The notes under the pieces were generated by a model. That model saw nothing but the letters and a program-made list of their open reading frames with translations. It made no database searches and was not told the DNA's origin. Of a stretch of 32,316 bases of DNA, positions 18,811 through 26,112 are shown in pieces (within the stretch, counting starts at the first letter, position 1; every line of letters starts with the position of its first letter). The DNA comes from Diploschistes diacapsis (lineage: Eukaryota), in contig JALAIB010000105.1 in the NCBI GenBank assembly GCA_023645945.1, positions 1 to 32,316 of the forward strand. The letters are read 5' to 3'. The position numbers and the translations under genes are program-made.

Positions 18811-21192
18811 ATGTCTCTTTTCGGTTCGTCGCCTGATGATTCCGGTCTTATAAAGCCAGACTCTAGACATCAGTCCAAATCGCTCTTCGATGATGGACCC
18901 AAGGCGGCTCCTGAAGTGAACAACTCGCTCTTTGCAGACTACGGTGGCAATGAGTCGCCATGGTCCATACCGACCTCCAAGAAAGCTGGCCGAGACGAGC
19001 TCATTAGAAGCCTAATATCCCCTTCAGACGCACCCGAGAGCTATGTAAATGGTTTTGACGCAATATTAGAGAATGGAGGGAATATGAACAGCAGGTTGAG
19101 TCTTGAGGATGTAATGAAGCTCCTGCAGAGTAGCGGCATTCCCCAAGGCGACCAGACGTTAATACTTCGTCTTGTTTCCCCCGCTACTGCTACCGGCGTC
19201 GACAGGAATACGTTCAATTTGTTGATGGCGTTGATTGGTCTTGTGCAAGAAGGCGAGGAGGCATCGCTGGACGGGGTTGATGAAAGAAAGAAGAGTAAGG
19301 CCCAAGCTTGTATATAGGCAATAGCTTGCTTACGATGCTTCAGATCTTCCCGAACCATCGATACCCTATCTTGCTTCGCTCAAGACTACCAAAGTGTCAC
19401 AGAGCACTGCAAAGAGTAACGGACAAGATTCTTCGACTACTCAGGCAAGCTCCACCACATCCTCGCCATCAAAACAACGACAAGTTCACACAGGCTCCTT
19501 TAACGATTCTGAAGTGGATCCGTGGGCTAGTTCCGCTGCGCCAAGAAGTCAGACACAGCCAGTTCTCAACGATTCGACTCCGGACCGTAACGTTATTACA
19601 GCGGCACGACCACTCATATCTACCTCGGCGACAAGAACGACTAGCGCATTCACCACTAGCGCCCACGATCCTGACGCCTCCTCGAAAATGACCGGGACAA
19701 CGCTTGGCGATAACGCTGCTGGCAGTACAGCGGGCGCTTGGGGTGGTCCAGGAAACCCTGGATTCCCAGATACCAATCCAAGTGGTCTTGGCGGTGCCGG
19801 CTTTGGCTCAAACGACCGAGGCGACCAACCCAATGCTCGGTCTGGCCGTTCTTTTGGTGCAAATTTGAACCCCGTTAATAGAGCCGTGGAAGAATCTGTT
19901 ACAATCACTATATTGCCCGAGAAGGAGGGAATGTTCATGTTTCAACACCGTAATTACGAGGTCAAGAGCCCACGGCGCGGAAGTTCTGTCGTGCGGAGGT
20001 ACAGCGATTTCGTATGGCTTTTGGACTGTTTGCACAAAAGATATCCGTTTCGTCAATTACCACTTTTACCACCAAAGAGGGTAGCCTGTATGATAGTTTT
20101 CGCATGAGCATGAACTTGTCAAAATGCTAACGGAGATCCAGTCAATGGACGTCACTTATCGTCGGATATCCAGTTTATCGAGAAACGACGGCGTGGTTTA
20201 GTGAGATTCGCTAACGCTCTTGTGCGGCACCCTGTCCTTTGCCAGGAGCAGCTAGTTGTAATGTTCCTGACAGTACCGACGGTAGGGCAGGTTGTTATTG
20301 TGGAAGCTACCAATACTAATGCTGCACTCAGGAGCTGACGGTCTGGCGCAAACAGGCTACCATTTCCGTACAAGAAGAGTTCACCGGCAAAATCCTACCA
20401 CCAGGCTTGGAGGACTCGCTTCCCGCTAACCTCCAGGACACTTTTGATACTGTGCGTAATGGGGTGCGGAAATCAGCGGAGATTTACATTGGGCTGTGCA
20501 ACCTCATCGAGCGGCTGGCGAAGCGGAACCAGGGCATTGCGGCCGACTCACTCCGCTTTTCTCAGTCATTACGCTCGCTAACGGAAGAGTCAGACCCCAC
20601 TTATGCTACAGATACAAACGACGTTCCGTTACTGAACGAAGGCATCAAAGCAACCGCAAAGCATTTCGAGACTAGCCATAGTCTATTGGAGGACGAAGCC
20701 CAGGCTTGGGATGAAGGTGTTTTGGAGGACATGAAAAGGCAAAGAGACTGCCTCGTCAGCGTCAGAGACATGTTTGACCGCCATGATCGCTTCGCCAAGG
20801 ATAATATACCACAGTTGGAGAGACGAATAGAAAGTAATGAGGCCAAGCTTGCGAGCATTCGAGCGAAGCCGGAGGGCTCGGTCAAGCCTGGAGAGCTAGA
20901 GAAGGTTGAACAAGCTATTCTCGGTGTAAGCGTAGCCATCAATTGCGGGCATTATCGAATTACTGACTGACCTGTTTAGGATAAACAATCCATAGTCAGC
21001 CAGCATTCCCGTGATGTATTTATAAAGGAGTGCATAAGGGATGAGCTGGGTTTCCTCCAGCAGTCGCAGTACCACGTGAGCAAGCTCCATCAAGAATGGA
21101 GCCAAGAGTTGGTAAAATACTCTGAGCTACAAGCCGATAACTGGAGAGCTCTGAGCGAGGAAGTGGAAAACATGCCAACGGGCGAATCATAA
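18811..21192 (+). CDS. MVP1: Sorting nexin Mvp1 (PX-BAR), 724 aa
   Basis: Exons 18811-19294, 19344-20087, 20142-20281, 20332-20925 and 20980-21192 (2175 nt). MSLFG start; PX motifs EKEGMFMFQHRNYEV, VRRYSDFVWLLDCLHKRYPFRQLPLLPPKR and FIEKRRRGLVRF; helical BAR C-terminus. Confidence 0.95.
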
Positions 21193-21585
21193 TGTTTCTG
21201 CTACGGGAATGACTCGAGTCTACGATTAGGGACGCGTCTTGCTAAACTAGGTAATGTAGATAGCATCCTCCAAAGGTACCGGCTTTCCCCTCGCTCTTCG
21301 ACGCGGGTGGTGTAAAATACTCCCGGTATAGCTTCATTTTTATGGGAAAGTCAATATTTACGCGCAGTGATTCAGGTAGTAAAAAGATGCGCTAGCTTGT
21401 AAACCCCGGTATCTCCATAACAGTGGACGTCATGTCCCTGTTTCGCGGCTCTGCTTCCACTTCAACATGAATAGTAACATCCAACACTTTAACAATGTTA
21501 CTATGCATCTTGAAGGTTGAAAATAAATCCTGTCTTGCTTGAAGCAGCTTCGATCCTTCAGTAACAGCTCTTCGTGAAGGCGGCG

Positions 21586-24500
21586 ATGCCTGCCTTTAAC
21601 TCGCAGCAACGAGCTGCCCTCAGAGACTTTGTCGAGACCACGGGTGCTAAGGAAAGCGTAGCTGTAAAAGTAAGTGAGAATTACTTCCTCATCACTTCCA
21701 TGTTGCGACGAGTTTCCGTAACAGTAGAGATGGCAAGAGGAAAGAACGCCGGACTGACCTATATATTTTAGCAATTGAGAGCGTCGGGATGGAATCCCAA
21801 CGCAGCTGTCGATACGTATGTACTGGTTCTTCATTTCACTATTCATATCTCTATCTTGTGGATTATCGACTCGCTTCTTATGTATCACCGTCCTTTCCGT
21901 GTTATTCTTCCCTTGCAGCGTTTCGGAATATCACTATCTAGTGGAGGAAATATTCTGGGTCGCTCGAGGGCGTTGGACTTAATCCCGAGCGTATCTCGAG
22001 AACATTTGACGGGTGTCGAATTACTGCTCTACGCTAGTGACGGGTCCGAGACAGGAAAGGCAACACAGGCAGTTGTCTATCTTGAAGAAAAAACCGGGGC
22101 ATCTTCCATCTATTCTCGACATTATCTGGACACGTCCAGTCGTCTAGTTCTAAGGGTTTACACGGACTTTCAGAAAAGGAGATCGTCCTTTCGGCAGCCC
22201 TTAACATTTCCTCGATTTATGTTAGGTACCCGACCGACAGCTGTCATCTTTCATTACAATGGCTGAGCACCCCGACGAAGACGGTTCAGAGCAAAGGCCT
22301 ACCAAATTCAATGTTGAAGGGGCAGATGAAATATGTGAAACCTTTATCAAGCTCTTCAGGAAGACGACAGTAGGGCAGAAGCTTGAGACATCTGAAAGAG
22401 AACTCGAAGATGATCCCGATCTACCTCGCGGCCGAAGGCGCCACAAACCCTATTACCCCCCTAGGGTAACCCCAAAATATCTAACTACAGAGTTGAGAAT
22501 CCATCTGCGGAGTTTGGCAAAGGAGTGGATTGCACAGTATCGCAGCGGCGACCTCACTTCCAAAGAGCTTCGAAGACGAATGGCACTTGAGATTGAACGC
22601 TCATTCAAGAGCTTCTGGGCACTCTCCGCCTTTGCACGTGAGGAGCTTAATTTAGATTTTGACGATCCAGACCGGCCTGAACTCGAGGTTCGAAAAGAAA
22701 ACCTAGCTGCGGAAGAGGAATCAGAGAAGAGAAAGCGGGAATTAGAGTCAAAAGCTCTCACAATACAACCGGTATCCAGAAAAGCCGAGAAGAAGCCTCT
22801 GGTCTGTCAGAGGGATGACGGCACACGTGACTACCACCCAGGCTACGAAAATTCCATGAAAGTGACGAATACGGGTTCAAGCGATGCAGTCCGCGATGTT
22901 GACTTGATGAAAGTGGACGAAGACGATTTGAAAGCTGGCAGAGTGTTTATCACCAGAGTCCCTCTCATAAATGAGATCCGGGACGCTATCACGGATACGA
23001 GATTGGGGCTTAAGAAGTGGAAATTCCAAGAGATCTGCGACTTCATCAGTGAGTCAGCAGGATTTCCTCTTTATCTATCTTATTTTGAGAAGAGTTTTTA
23101 CGAAGGGGAAGTTCCGGCAGCAACTGTCGCTCAAAGTATATGCGACCTCAATCAAGTTCCTCCCGACTTCATGGTTGGTGAAACAGTCAAGGATACGCTT
23201 AAACGCGGCGCTTTACGTGACGTTGTTTTAGAACACCTAAGTCATTTGGTTTCCCATTCAAGAGCCGGCACCATGAATCCGAATTTGGCTCAAGAATTTG
23301 CTGTTGATACCCTTCAATTCTCTGCAGATTTTGGAAGTGCCCTTGAACACTTTCAATTGCTTTGTCAAAGTCACGAAATTGAACCTTCGGCTGCAGCTCA
23401 ACTTGCTTGGGCCGAACACATAGATAATGACTTTGTGTTCGAAAAACACGTATTAGAGGAATTTTCTGACATCTACCTGGGTACCCGGTCTGACGACACA
23501 GTGCCTACGTGGACTGGAGCCTTGTACGAGCCGCCGTTCCACTGTCGTGAGCAGTTTCATTCCCTAATGACGAAAGTCTTTGATGGATGCCGAGGTGGCA
23601 AATGGAGCATTATATGGGCAGATAAGTTGGTTCGTCATTTCTATGGCAGAAGAGCCCCAGCACTTCCTGACCTCGAGTTGTGGATCTCCAGAACGGACAT
23701 GACTTCAGTTGATCTAGCAGACAAAATCTGGCATAGCGTTCCGGAAAAAGACGATTGGGACTTGATGCTTCAAACACACAACGACGTATACATTAAGAAG
23801 AAGATGCGGCAGATGCAGGAAGATCTCGAGAAACGAGCCAAACGAGCTCAGGACACTATAATTGAATCATATCGGGAAGTCGGCAATGGAGCCGAAGTCC
23901 TCCCCAAGCTCTCAAAACTTAGGATTATGTATCCAAACAAGCGTCGCATGCTGGACATAGCAGAAGACATCATCAATGGCCGGACCAGCTTACGAAGAGC
24001 TCGAAAGCTACTTAAGAGCCTCGAGACCGGAATTGATTTACGAGCTCTTTGGAAAAAGATGTATCAGAACGGACTAGATCCTGTCTATTTCTATGGGGGA
24101 GAAATTTCTAGAGCCATGGGATATGAAGTCTTCGCACGTTCGCCATTGCATGGAAAATGGGACAAGGACCACCAACATGATATAATGAGACAGCCACTCT
24201 ACTTTCCAGATGGTGCCGGAATTTCTGATAGTGATGGAGAAACCGAGGGCCTATGGGGCCTCCGTATGCCGACTGAGGATGCGAAAAAATGGGCAAGGCA
24301 GTTGAAGCTCAGAGAAGATTTGGTCGAGGGCAACCACAAAAACCTGAAATTGAAGCGCAAAGAACAAGCAGTAAGACGATTTATCATGGGTGAGGAGCCC
24401 CCGCATACGTCCAGAGGGTCATACCATGCTCCTATGAAGCGTACGGCGAGTAAAGAGCTATCAGCTATCCCTCCAAAACGCTCGAAAACGCCCTCCCCAA

Positions 24501-26112
24501 TCCCGTCGGATGGCCCTCAAAACTCGACAGAAGAAACAAGTGTTGAGGAATCCGAGCATACTCTCGCCTTACTTACACGGCCTGTCCGTCGTTCAGACCT
24601 GTCTACTTCTTCACCTTCACTTGGCCTCGGTATTACCAGCTCTGTCACGGCAGTCTCAGGATCTGGTGAAGGTTGCATAGAAAGGCCAATACCGGGACAT
24701 GCAGCCCATGAACGTACAAGCAGCCACCCGTACTCGCCTCCTTTCTCGACTTTTTCCACGCTTCTATCATCGCTTCCGTCCTCTCCTGGATTTGCAGACT
24801 TGACATTTCAAGATCCTGGTCACGCAAACAAGCCATCCACTGCATCAAATAACAGTGGTCCGTCATCTCCAAGGCCCGGCCGAAGGGAATTGGCAGTGCA
24901 TCCTCCTTCGCTTGGCGACAATTCTGCATCTCCCCCGTCTCCAAGGCCAGGGCATATGCAATTACCAACTGGCCCTGCTCAAGTGAGAAGATCCCCGCAA
25001 TCTCATTCTCCTCCTCCTACTCCTCCTCGGGCACCAATTAGCGAAGAAGGTCAAGGGCAATTGACGACGCGTCAGCCGGAATTTCGTCCTCCTGGTCCTC
25101 GGGTCTCAATCCGTAGGACAGAATCTTCACCAACGAAGCGTTCCCAACGCGAAGGGACACCATTTCCAGGATAAAGTGCAATGCTTCAAGTCTGCAATAA
25201 CCCTGACGCACTAACTCATGGAATAGTGCTGCGATTCTTTCCAAGGCTCTTTTACCCATTAAATGAGGGTTTCCTGTCTTTGTACTCGATTCTTTTCTTG
25301 CCTTTGTTCATTTTGTTCTGTACACTGATTGAATTTATCGCTACTAGTTATTTCCAAACGGCCTCGTCTGCTCCGAAGAAAATATCATTGAGGCCGGCTC
25401 TGAACAAAGTCTTTGATAAATATCGAGGTTCGTTGTGTTTCTGGAACGGGAATCGTAACTGACCATCGCAGATGACAGCTCAAGCCCGGATCAGATCGGC
25501 GCCGAAGGTACCATGACGTACCTCACCGAGATCAAGGTGTCATTGGAAGAGTGTGCTATGTTGGCCGTTCTTACCCAGCTGAAGGCACCGACAATGGGAG
25601 AGCTTACAAGAGAAGGTTTCATAAGCGGCTGGGAGGAGCTCTCAGCGGATACAATCGAGAAACAGAAGACACACGTGGCTCATTTTCGTTCCGAAATCAA
25701 GAGTAATCACGACTTCTTTCGCAATGTGTATCGTCATTCCTTTTATCTTGCTCGATCTCCGGGACAGAAATCAGTTGCCCTCGACGCAGCTATTGAGTTT
25801 TGGCGCATGCTATTCTCACCGGAGAGTGGACTGGACTGGAGCTCCGGCGGGTTCAGCTGGCTAGACCACTACGTCACCTTCATCCAGGACAAATGGAAGA
25901 AGAGTATCGGAAAGGATCTATGGCACCAGACACTGTTTTTTGCTCAAAAGACAATTGATGATCCCTCGCTATCATGGTGGAACGAAATAGAGTCTGCGTG
26001 GCCTAGCGTTTTGGACGAATTTGCTGCTCATGTCAAGTCATTGCCGGAGTATTCGATGAACCTAAAGCCGCTGGGATCAGGTGCCGGCGATGGTATGGAC
26101 ACGCGAGAATGA
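21586..26112 (+). CDS. DCN1: Defective in cullin neddylation protein 1 (UBA-like + PONY/cullin-binding domain), 282 aa, interrupted by a 3.5-kb intron
   Basis: Exons 21586-21669, 21772-21815, 25348-25427 and 25472-26112 total 849 nt, in frame: MPAFNSQQRAALRDFVETTGAKESVAVK|QLRASGWNPNAAVDT|YFQ...LNKVFDKYR|DDSSSPDQIGAEGTMTYL...APTMGELTREGFISGW...GQKSVALDAAIEFWRMLF...KKSIGKDLW...SAWPSVLDEF. The UBA-like motif W-N...AVD-x-YF is split exactly across the long intron. Confidence 0.92.
21816..25347 (+). other. Giant (3,532-nt) spliceosomal intron 2 of DCN1 hosting a nested ORF
   Basis: Donor GTATGT at 21816. Long pyrimidine tract about 25270-25320, branch CTGAT at 25325-25329, acceptor TAG at 25345-25347. 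The phase-2 junction (AC|T) restores AVDT-YFQ. Confidence 0.85.
22259..25174 (+). CDS. Uncharacterised 971-aa intronless protein nested in DCN1 intron 2 (helical repeats plus Pro/Ser-rich disordered tail)
   Basis: Uninterrupted 2,916-nt ORF with a good start context (ACAATGG), protein-like composition and basic NLS-like clusters (RGRRRHK, KRKRE, PPKRSK). I recognise no transposase, RT, integrase or homing-endonuclease motifs. Confidence 0.8.
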   Translation: MAEHPDEDGSEQRPTKFNVEGADEICETFIKLFRKTTVGQKLETSERELEDDPDLPRGRRRHKPYYPPRVTPKYLTTELRIHLRSLAKEWIAQYRSGDLTSKELRRRMALEIERSFKSFWALSAFAREELNLDFDDPDRPELEVRKENLAAEEESEKRKRELESKALTIQPVSRKAEKKPLVCQRDDGTRDYHPGYENSMKVTNTGSSDAVRDVDLMKVDEDDLKAGRVFITRVPLINEIRDAITDTRLGLKKWKFQEICDFISESAGFPLYLSYFEKSFYEGEVPAATVAQSICDLNQVPPDFMVGETVKDTLKRGALRDVVLEHLSHLVSHSRAGTMNPNLAQEFAVDTLQFSADFGSALEHFQLLCQSHEIEPSAAAQLAWAEHIDNDFVFEKHVLEEFSDIYLGTRSDDTVPTWTGALYEPPFHCREQFHSLMTKVFDGCRGGKWSIIWADKLVRHFYGRRAPALPDLELWISRTDMTSVDLADKIWHSVPEKDDWDLMLQTHNDVYIKKKMRQMQEDLEKRAKRAQDTIIESYREVGNGAEVLPKLSKLRIMYPNKRRMLDIAEDIINGRTSLRRARKLLKSLETGIDLRALWKKMYQNGLDPVYFYGGEISRAMGYEVFARSPLHGKWDKDHQHDIMRQPLYFPDGAGISDSDGETEGLWGLRMPTEDAKKWARQLKLREDLVEGNHKNLKLKRKEQAVRRFIMGEEPPHTSRGSYHAPMKRTASKELSAIPPKRSKTPSPIPSDGPQNSTEETSVEESEHTLALLTRPVRRSDLSTSSPSLGLGITSSVTAVSGSGEGCIERPIPGHAAHERTSSHPYSPPFSTFSTLLSSLPSSPGFADLTFQDPGHANKPSTASNNSGPSSPRPGRRELAVHPPSLGDNSASPPSPRPGHMQLPTGPAQVRRSPQSHSPPPTPPRAPISEEGQGQLTTRQPEFRPPGPRVSIRRTESSPTKRSQREGTPFPG

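Follow-up and report, generated by a model that had tools for sequence, protein, structure and literature searches.

How does a filamentous fungus come to carry a complete gene inside a single intron of another gene, with both on the same strand, and how would the two be expressed? This question is raised by the DCN1 locus of the lichen-forming fungus Diploschistes diacapsis, which lies within a 32,316-nucleotide (nt) stretch of the forward strand of contig JALAIB010000105.1 (assembly GCA_023645945.1), hereafter called the window. DCN1 is a scaffold-type E3 for cullin neddylation, and the introns of filamentous fungi are normally tens of bases long. One intron of this DCN1 encloses an open reading frame (ORF) of 971 amino acids (aa), which we call the guest. 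In our opinion the locus is probably a conserved host-guest pair, in which the guest would be a separate gene on the strand of its host, sitting in a DCN1 intron that has grown and presumably transcribed from a promoter of its own within that intron.

The four exons of the host, joined by script, give a coding sequence of 849 nt that translates into 282 aa with one stop, which is terminal, and every intron has GT..AG borders (Table 1). Homology argues for this exon model along its whole length. The translation of exon 4 matches the Pfam family Cullin_binding with 97.7 bits at a cut-off of 27.9. Exon 1 alone, holding just part of the UBA-like domain, gives 16.5 bits for UBA_8 (E = 0.0072), under the cut-off of 26. 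The 282-aa protein is colinear from end to end with the DCN1 of Elsinoe (P0033, 270 aa; global alignment score 516), for which the database records the domains UBA_8, UBA_4 and Cullin_binding, with PF22566 and PF14555 in the UBA part. The 43-aa peptide encoded by exons 1 and 2 scores 65 against the N-terminus of P0033, with shuffled peptides scoring 21.1 ± 4.2 and 0 of 2000 reaching 65. The annotated DCN1 of Gomphillus (P0040) possesses the same UBA N-terminus and the same join, ..AVDA^YFQT.. (^ marks the intron), and its segment QLKAAGWDLNAAVDA aligns with the exon 2 peptide QLRASGWNPNAAVDT of the window.

An earlier note on this DNA, made from its letters only, had stated that DCN1 can be assembled solely by splicing 21815 to 25348 and that the intron splits the UBA-like domain. 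The split four-exon model stands, whereas the intron is located at the C-terminal edge of the domain (..AVDT^YFQ..) and not in its middle. Two other statements of that note are borne out: within DCN1 the intron is indeed a giant, with 3,532 nt as against just 102 and 44 nt for the remaining ones, and a single same-strand ORF takes up 83% of it. Frame +2 is free of stops from 22226 to 25174, that is, over 2,949 of the 3,532 nt (83.5%) from stop to stop. The guest coding sequence lies entirely inside this one intron, both genes being on the plus strand and the host model being homology-based.

Is the guest a real gene? A HMMER search of 1.84 billion representatives returned three homologues besides the window's own protein (E = 3e-100, 5e-98 and 2.5e-59), namely P0036 and P0037 (798 aa) and P0038 (668 aa), with identities of 33-36%. 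A word-indexed protein search with the whole guest or with residues 212-745 found only the guest itself among the matches listed and missed P0036-38 too, and a metagenome scan with the guest alignment gave 265 pattern matches with 0 confirmed. Many columns of the family alignment are invariant, for example those of IYxGTxSDD, LWxxMYxxxxDPVYF, EGLWGLxMP and KR-x11-KRxK, after which comes a Ser/Pro-rich tail containing PPSPRPxxxxLP repeats. The C-termini of the window's guest, P0038 and P0037 are shared as well, with REGTPFPG, REGTPMPGSR and REDTPYL, respectively, directly followed by the stop. The N-terminal part is conserved with P0038, the score being 83 while shuffles give 35.6 ± 6.3 and 0 of 1000 reach it.

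Further evidence comes from a comparison with sequencing runs X1-X4, all four of which consist of contigs. X3 and X4 cover parts of the stretch only. X1 carries the whole stretch in one contig and may itself be the source of this DNA. X2, a run from another study whose contigs differ by 1-3% each, serves as the independent comparison. Between the guest ORF and its close relative in X2, 11 synonymous and 7 non-synonymous changes were counted among the 18 listed differences. The null expects 22-34% to be synonymous, and the excess has P = 0.016 under a transitions-only null, or 0.0004. Judged by the three homologues, the conserved motifs and the synonymous excess, the guest is a functional protein-coding gene under coding constraint.

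Each of the three guest homologues shares its longest-contig size with a match to DCN1, the sizes being 16,392 for P0036 and P0006, 64,567 for P0037 and P0005, and 90,664 for P0038 and P0004. With these equal sizes, P0036-38 apparently sit on the same contigs as P0006, P0005 and P0004. In a tree of the PONY parts from a quick maximum-likelihood search, the window, P0004-6, P0007-9 and Gomphillus form one clade with 100% support in the Shimodaira-Hasegawa-like approximate likelihood ratio test, and the window is the first branch within this eight-member DCN1 clade. Because the window branches first, the guest predates the clade. The words "orphan" and "new protein" used in the earlier note are therefore too strong for a gene that has three homologues, apparently on the DCN1 contigs of relatives, and that is older than the split of the eight members.

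Could the arrangement be an artefact, in which misassembly, a transposon gene or an ORF open by chance mimics a nested gene? The window is apparently a metagenome-assembled contig and the guest matches no Pfam family, both of which would suit such an explanation. Misassembly was rejected, since contigs of X2 span both host-guest junctions: one bridges 21400-22294, taking in exons 1 and 2 with the intron between them and the first part of the guest, and another bridges 25155-25604, which holds the last part of the guest and the spacer, continues through exon 3 and intron 3 and reaches into exon 4. Over the guest the single-contig depth of X2 is 79-97, similar to the 96.5 of the flanks, as would be expected of single-copy DNA. 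A transposable element gene was likewise rejected: no terminal or inverted repeats flank the guest ORF, no Pfam family is matched, and only four related proteins, the guest's own included, are found among the 1.84 billion representatives. Misassembly and a multicopy transposon gene were among the refutations that the earlier note had named for its proposal, and neither is what the contigs, the repeats, Pfam, the library matches and the depth reveal. With the coding constraint added, an artefact of any of these kinds is hardly credible.

Nor is the locus a singular one among fungi, as the following survey shows. A metagenome scan with the DCN1 alignment yielded 80 fungal DCN1 loci, in which the UBA exons, exon 3 and the PONY exon were placed by tblastn; the exon-3 motif was found in most of them. 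The gap between the UBA exons and exon 3 was measurable in 52 loci, 8 others having no exon-3 match and 20 no UBA match (often where the contig ends early). Among the 52, many of which are the same species resampled, 8 are short contigs with UBA directly joined to exon 3 (gaps of -3 to 24 nt), 23 have gaps of 56-448 nt, and 21 have gaps of 702-4,051 nt, with 8 of these 21 forming one near-identical group. Of the 21 long gaps, 16 hold an ORF on the host strand that measures 248-1,230 aa from a Met, the longest opposite-strand ORFs there measuring 63-151 aa. In locus L002 the intron has the same position and phase as in the window. Thus the same intron is long and ORF-bearing in other clades too. 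Snx8/Mvp1, the upstream neighbour in the window, also precedes the UBA exons in the same orientation at 27 of the 80 loci, regardless of intron size. This synteny implies that the UBA exons are in their ancestral place and that the extra DNA lies inside the gene.

Besides the family of the window's guest (F1), two families of guests were recognised. The ORFs of family F2 have a conserved Met start, MFGSSEDRARQLAGR, and match no Pfam family. Of the 18 gap regions searched, 7 gave a match to the F2 profile, in each case on the strand of DCN1 and immediately before exon 3, and the lineages concerned form a 99% clade that includes Nothophoma (Pleosporales). The stop of the F2 ORF lies 17, 58, 66 or 93 nt ahead of exon 3; the ORF of L016 overlaps exon 3, which it reads in a different frame. 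Family F3 consists of the 1,228-aa ORF of the L002 group and a 50%-identical homologue in L070 (1909-3120). The F3 ORF, in L002 as in L070, lacks a stop and continues in frame into exon 3, with the conservation of the protein extending to the exon-3 junction. Its ratio of non-synonymous to synonymous substitution rates (dN/dS) is 0.31-0.39 between lineages and 0.34 over the last 89 codons, the PONY exon having 0.11-0.15. The upstream part of L070 contains an in-frame stop at 479 and a change of frame near 1816-1909.

A common origin of F1, F2 and F3 was considered and set aside, homology not being demonstrated by hhalign or HMMER. By hhalign, F1 against F2 gives E = 0.76, and F1 against the guest of L002 gives E = 9.5e-4 with a probability of 22%, or E = 0.0092 and 4% with the F3 alignment. 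The sole segment with a weak profile match to the L002 guest is EGLWGLRMP. A HMMER profile of F1 found nothing in the 18 gap regions.

Eight short intron-less DCN1 contigs of the survey resemble complementary DNA (cDNA): L001, L007, L014, L022, L039, L050, L052 and L057. No poly(A) tails were seen at their ends. In L014 and L001, which fall inside the F2 clade (99 with L027 and L036), the UBA part is joined to exon 3 and the small downstream intron is also gone. Both have 73-83% identity to the genomic loci and hence come from different species. Indirectly, these two contigs suggest that DCN1 mRNA is spliced across the guest-bearing intron in the F2 clade.

A wider reading of the survey can be put forward tentatively and with considerable doubt. 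The intron at the UBA/PONY boundary might be an old, conserved Pezizomycotina slot with an internal promoter for lineage-specific, fast-evolving proteins on the host strand. These would be fused in frame to PONY in some lichen fungi and ended by a stop in others, the window among them, and would be coupled to neddylation. Such proteins might descend from one ancient and diverged nested gene, or from repeated captures or de novo births. The coupling might take the form of an alternative targeting module, or of a product formed at a cost to full-length DCN1.

We return to the window and to the second half of the question raised above. In the host-guest reading that we prefer, DCN1 would have kept its ancestral exon order beside Mvp1/Snx8, while its phase-2 intron at the boundary between UBA and linker grew to 3.5 kilobases (kb) and came to host a separate, intron-less gene on the same strand, which would be a member of a lineage-restricted and fast-evolving family. 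Full-length DCN1 would require the 21815-to-25348 splice, by which the guest is discarded. Transcription of the guest would start at a promoter of its own, situated within the intron's first 443 nt. The guest mRNA would stop either in the spacer of 173 nt or farther on, with DCN1 exons 3-4 as its 3′ untranslated region (UTR). One transcript would then give one product, and read-through of the host as well as initiation and termination of the guest could interfere with each other.

The same anatomy would also be expected from the splicing/polyadenylation switch that the earlier note proposed, with a single promoter and a single pre-mRNA: splicing would give DCN1, whereas polyadenylation downstream of the guest ORF would cut DCN1 short and leave the guest mRNA. 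The spacer leaves room for an intronic poly(A) site, with an ATTAAA upstream of the branch-like site, which itself is 19 nt ahead of the acceptor AG; an intronic terminator is therefore possible in the window. In such a transcript, however, the DCN1 ATG and a 164-codon open frame (21772-22266) would precede and overlap the guest ATG, so that the guest would be translated poorly. The other guest families speak against the switch from another side, since an F2 stop 17-93 nt before exon 3 or overlapping it, and an F3 ORF with no stop, leave no room there for an intronic 3′ end. Because of this lack of room, the guests of F2 and F3 would have to share the downstream exons of DCN1, which would serve as 3′ UTR in F2 and as coding sequence in F3, and an intronic promoter fits their anatomy better than the switch does. 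An intronic promoter, possibly with a shared 3′ part, thus appears at least as likely as the switch, which we judge unlikely as the explanation of the locus as a whole.

The deposited annotation of the window brings in a different possibility, namely that the guest and DCN1 form one fused protein, by splicing or by read-through, with the guest acting as an alternative long N-terminus of DCN1. The deposited model P0039 ("hypothetical protein", 1,150 aa) joins residues 1-937 of the guest, by way of one His, to the C-terminal 212 aa of DCN1. In keeping with such a fusion, the guest frame is the frame of exon 3 with the 58 codons between them open, and the guests of L002 and L070 are indeed continuous in frame with exon 3, conserved up to the junction with the dN/dS of the last 89 codons given above. 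Nevertheless, in the window the guest ORF is not continuous with exon 3 or 4, a TAA at 25172-25174 following the C-terminal motif that it has in common with P0038 and P0037, whose calls stop there. P0039 needs a weak GTCAGC donor after 25070, which it joins to the exon-4 acceptor; it loses the conserved last 34 aa of the guest and skips the conserved exon 3, omitting DCN1 exons 1-3 altogether. Moreover, no consensus donor in the last 400 nt of the guest keeps the frame into exon 3 or 4. A fused product of the window's guest is therefore highly improbable, and we regard P0039 as a prediction artefact that merges two genes. The open spacer deserves a comment: after the TAA its guest and exon-3 frame has no stop over the 58 codons, compared with 4 and 5 stops in the remaining two, and such an open frame arises in 1,145 of 20,000 shuffles (5.7%). 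It may be a remnant of an in-frame arrangement of guest and DCN1 as in L002 and L070, or chance. An in-frame ATG at 25181 in the spacer would read past the acceptor into exon 3.

The mis-annotation that the earlier note had predicted for this locus has thus occurred, with P0039 fusing the guest and DCN1, and with ORF-style callers giving the 971 aa plus a 199-aa stump of DCN1 (P0002). Nothophoma and Varicellaria have annotated DCN1 proteins that lack the UBA part, as would be expected if a predictor misses UBA exons lying 2-4 kb upstream. At present the annotations of several fungi (P0039, P0029 and P0028) appear to show DCN1 in truncated or fused form, and caution is advised with fungal DCN1 entries that lack UBA.

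Might such UBA-less forms instead be the true DCN1? The UBA exons would then be relics, DCN1 would start downstream of the guest, and the guest would be a mere neighbour. The UBA domain is reported to be dispensable for neddylation in yeast, in-frame ATGs are available downstream of the guest (25181 by way of the acceptor, and the Met of P0002), and the annotations of Nothophoma and Varicellaria have just this form; these, as said, are also what predictors give on distant UBA exons. The exons themselves do not look like relics. Exons 1 and 2 are intact with canonical splice sites, and their 128 nt contain 0 of the 22 listed X2 differences (23 in total) in 21400-22294, with all 3 insertions or deletions being non-coding, whereas their flanks differ from X2 by about 3%. 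Intron 1 alone has two substitutions and one insertion, and the 5′ part of the long intron has 13 substitutions and one insertion (2.9%), the densest in the stretch. The UBA exons thus appear to be still under constraint. They are about as Gomphillus-like as the remaining protein, the exon-3 peptide is conserved without a conserved start, and in the F2 clade the cDNA-like contigs have UBA followed directly by exon 3. We consider it quite improbable that the UBA exons are relics.

Having set out these alternatives, we still prefer the host-guest pair, and the following points weigh against it. The 18 listed differences in the guest all lie before 23462, in the first 40% of the ORF, and 83 further X2 differences across the whole stretch are outside the listed set. 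The X2 contig covering 22320-22667 is without one base at 22456, in the C run 22456-22461, which brings a stop at codon 70. Because none of the 4 later X2 differences, which lie in codons 83-181, changes an amino acid in the original frame, we read the missing base as a contig error, with a real variant as the standing alternative. The order of exons 1-2, guest and exons 3-4 in the three relatives is deduced solely from the equal contig sizes. Within the L002 group, the ratio of non-synonymous to synonymous polymorphism (pN/pS) of F3 is 1.2-1.7 on few differences. Long introns of 2.1-2.6 kb with no long or conserved ORF are seen in three lineages (L043 7238-9853; L048 7750-9861, for L048/L051; L072 6758-8982), and these imply that a long intron at DCN1 needs no guest. 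Finally, the 21815^25348 join and the guest mRNA are both proposed from sequence alone.

Table 1. Features of the DCN1 locus and its neighbour in the window, and guest ORFs at other fungal DCN1 loci (positions are those of the window or of the locus named)
Feature	Position	Strand	Remarks
Upstream neighbour, 3′ part, Snx8/Mvp1 BAR domain	20320-21192	+	Pfam PF19566, E = 2e-96 and 3.4e-30
DCN1 exon 1	21586-21669	+	28 codons, start of UBA-like domain; aligns to N-termini of P0033/P0040; GTAAGT donor next
DCN1 intron 1	21670-21771	+	102 nt, GTAAGT...TTTTAG
DCN1 exon 2	21772-21815	+	44 nt, end of UBA-like domain, final phase 2
DCN1 long intron	21816-25347	+	3,532 nt, phase 2, GTATGT...CTAG, branch-like CTGAT 25325-25329
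Intron 5′ part	21816-22258	+	443 nt; putative site of guest promoter and 5′ UTR
Guest ORF	22259-25174	+	intron-less, 971 aa + TAA 25172-25174; homologues P0036-38; no Pfam family
Guest conserved core, residues 212-745	22892-24493	+	alignments A1 and A4; predicted all-alpha
EGLWGLRMP, residues 663-671	24245-24271	+	invariant columns in alignment A1
KR-x11-KRSK, residues 727-743	24437-24487	+	resembles a bipartite nuclear localisation signal; K727, R728, P739, K740, R741 and K743 invariant in A1
Two PSPRP-type repeats, disordered Ser/Pro-rich tail	24859-24963	+	direct repeat D1; PPSPRPxxxxLP kept in P0036 and P0037
Spacer between guest stop and exon 3	25175-25347	+	173 nt, open in guest/exon-3 frame; ATTAAA 25258-25263
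DCN1 exon 3	25348-25427	+	linker YFQTASS...LNKVFDKYR; tblastn to P0011 (E = 9e-8), P0019 and P0035
DCN1 intron 3	25428-25471	+	44 nt, GTTCGT...CTGAC...CAG
DCN1 exon 4	25472-26112	+	PONY/Cullin_binding PF03556, E = 7.7e-28; TGA 26110-26112; 34 homologues
F2 ORFs	L015 1042-2091, L024 3522-4682, L026 1491-2996, L037 8560-9900		
F2 ORFs, continued	L016 8995-10002, L027 1-1380, L013 1-1193		
F3, L002 group	L002 6171-9854		also L003-5, L009, L071, L073 and L074

As to the guest protein itself, AlphaFold2 predicts an all-alpha core with a mean predicted local distance difference test score (pLDDT) of 65, residues ~20-330 of the core being at 70-90. No Pfam family was matched, the ESM Atlas had no usable match for F1 or F2, and Foldseek against the PDB gave nothing at E <= 0.001. 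In a wide VIA-align search the best Z for the guest model was 6.3 over 79 residues, within the stated noise of helical models. The KR-x11-KRSK motif fits the consensus of a bipartite nuclear localisation signal, by which the guest may be a nuclear protein.

A few other details of the locus were observed. A 29-nt direct repeat with 79% identity links 23568-23596 in the guest with 25401-25429 in exon 3, where the guest peptide TKVFDGCRG resembles NKVFDKYRG; the peptide is without conservation in the guest family, and the repeat is probably chance, with an estimated ~0.5 such seeds expected. Downstream of exon 2, the unspliced frame overlaps the guest ATG as mentioned. A possible short alternative intron, 21816-21918 (..CCCTTGCAG), has a frame ending 20 codons past its acceptor and would yield a UBA-only peptide of ~64 aa. 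A fusion of UBA to the guest was tried and rejected, the AG sites at 22225 and 22240 ahead of the guest ATG being out of phase with the exon-2 donor.

How does this locus compare with known systems? Nested protein genes are best described in animals, and same-strand orientation is the rarer one among them. Same-strand intronic genes are expected to be disfavoured, given that initiation and termination of the guest clash with transcription and splicing of the host. For mammals, pairs of host and nested intronic genes are presented in two reports (PMC11694760, PMC3192792). The DCN1 locus is similar to these pairs in that a whole protein gene lies in one intron, would be removed by host splicing and is expected to cause interference. 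It differs in being part of a compact filamentous-fungal genome, with the remaining DCN1 introns at 44-102 nt, in the guest being on the same strand, and in that the same slot is filled in different fungal clades by ORFs without detectable mutual similarity. A search of full-text literature, with subscription journals mostly outside it, found no paper on a nested gene in a fungal DCN1.

Compared with canonical fungal DCN1 (Elsinoe P0033 and Gomphillus P0040), the host gene has the same domain order, a similar length (282 versus 270-287 aa), Snx8/Mvp1 upstream, and the intron at the same position, ..AV(D/N)x^(Y/F)(F/Y)... The major difference is the size of that intron, which is 56-448 nt in 23 of the 52 measurable loci and 3,532 nt in the window.

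A further comparison is with animal DCN1-like proteins. The paralogues DCNL1-5 carry UBA, lipid-anchor or nuclear-localisation N-termini on their PONY part. Similarly, a transcript starting in the intron of L002 or L070 would give PONY an N-terminus of ~1,230 aa in place of UBA. In contrast, the guest of the window is ended by a conserved TAA 173 nt before exon 3, which would give two separate products, and the fungal case would be one gene with two first exons rather than a set of paralogues.

The pair has seemingly been kept since before the split of the eight-member lichen-forming clade. A second clade, to which Pleosporales belong, likewise has a long intron with an ORF at this place, and a third group has its ORF in frame with PONY. 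If true at the transcript level, the locus would offer a natural system in which to study the handling of a nested same-strand gene by a compact genome, and one may ask whether a lineage-specific protein retargets the output of DCN1 or is traded against it. Nested genes as such are of a known kind; this one is unusual for a filamentous fungus, with a slot that holds different ORFs in different clades, one of them fused to PONY.

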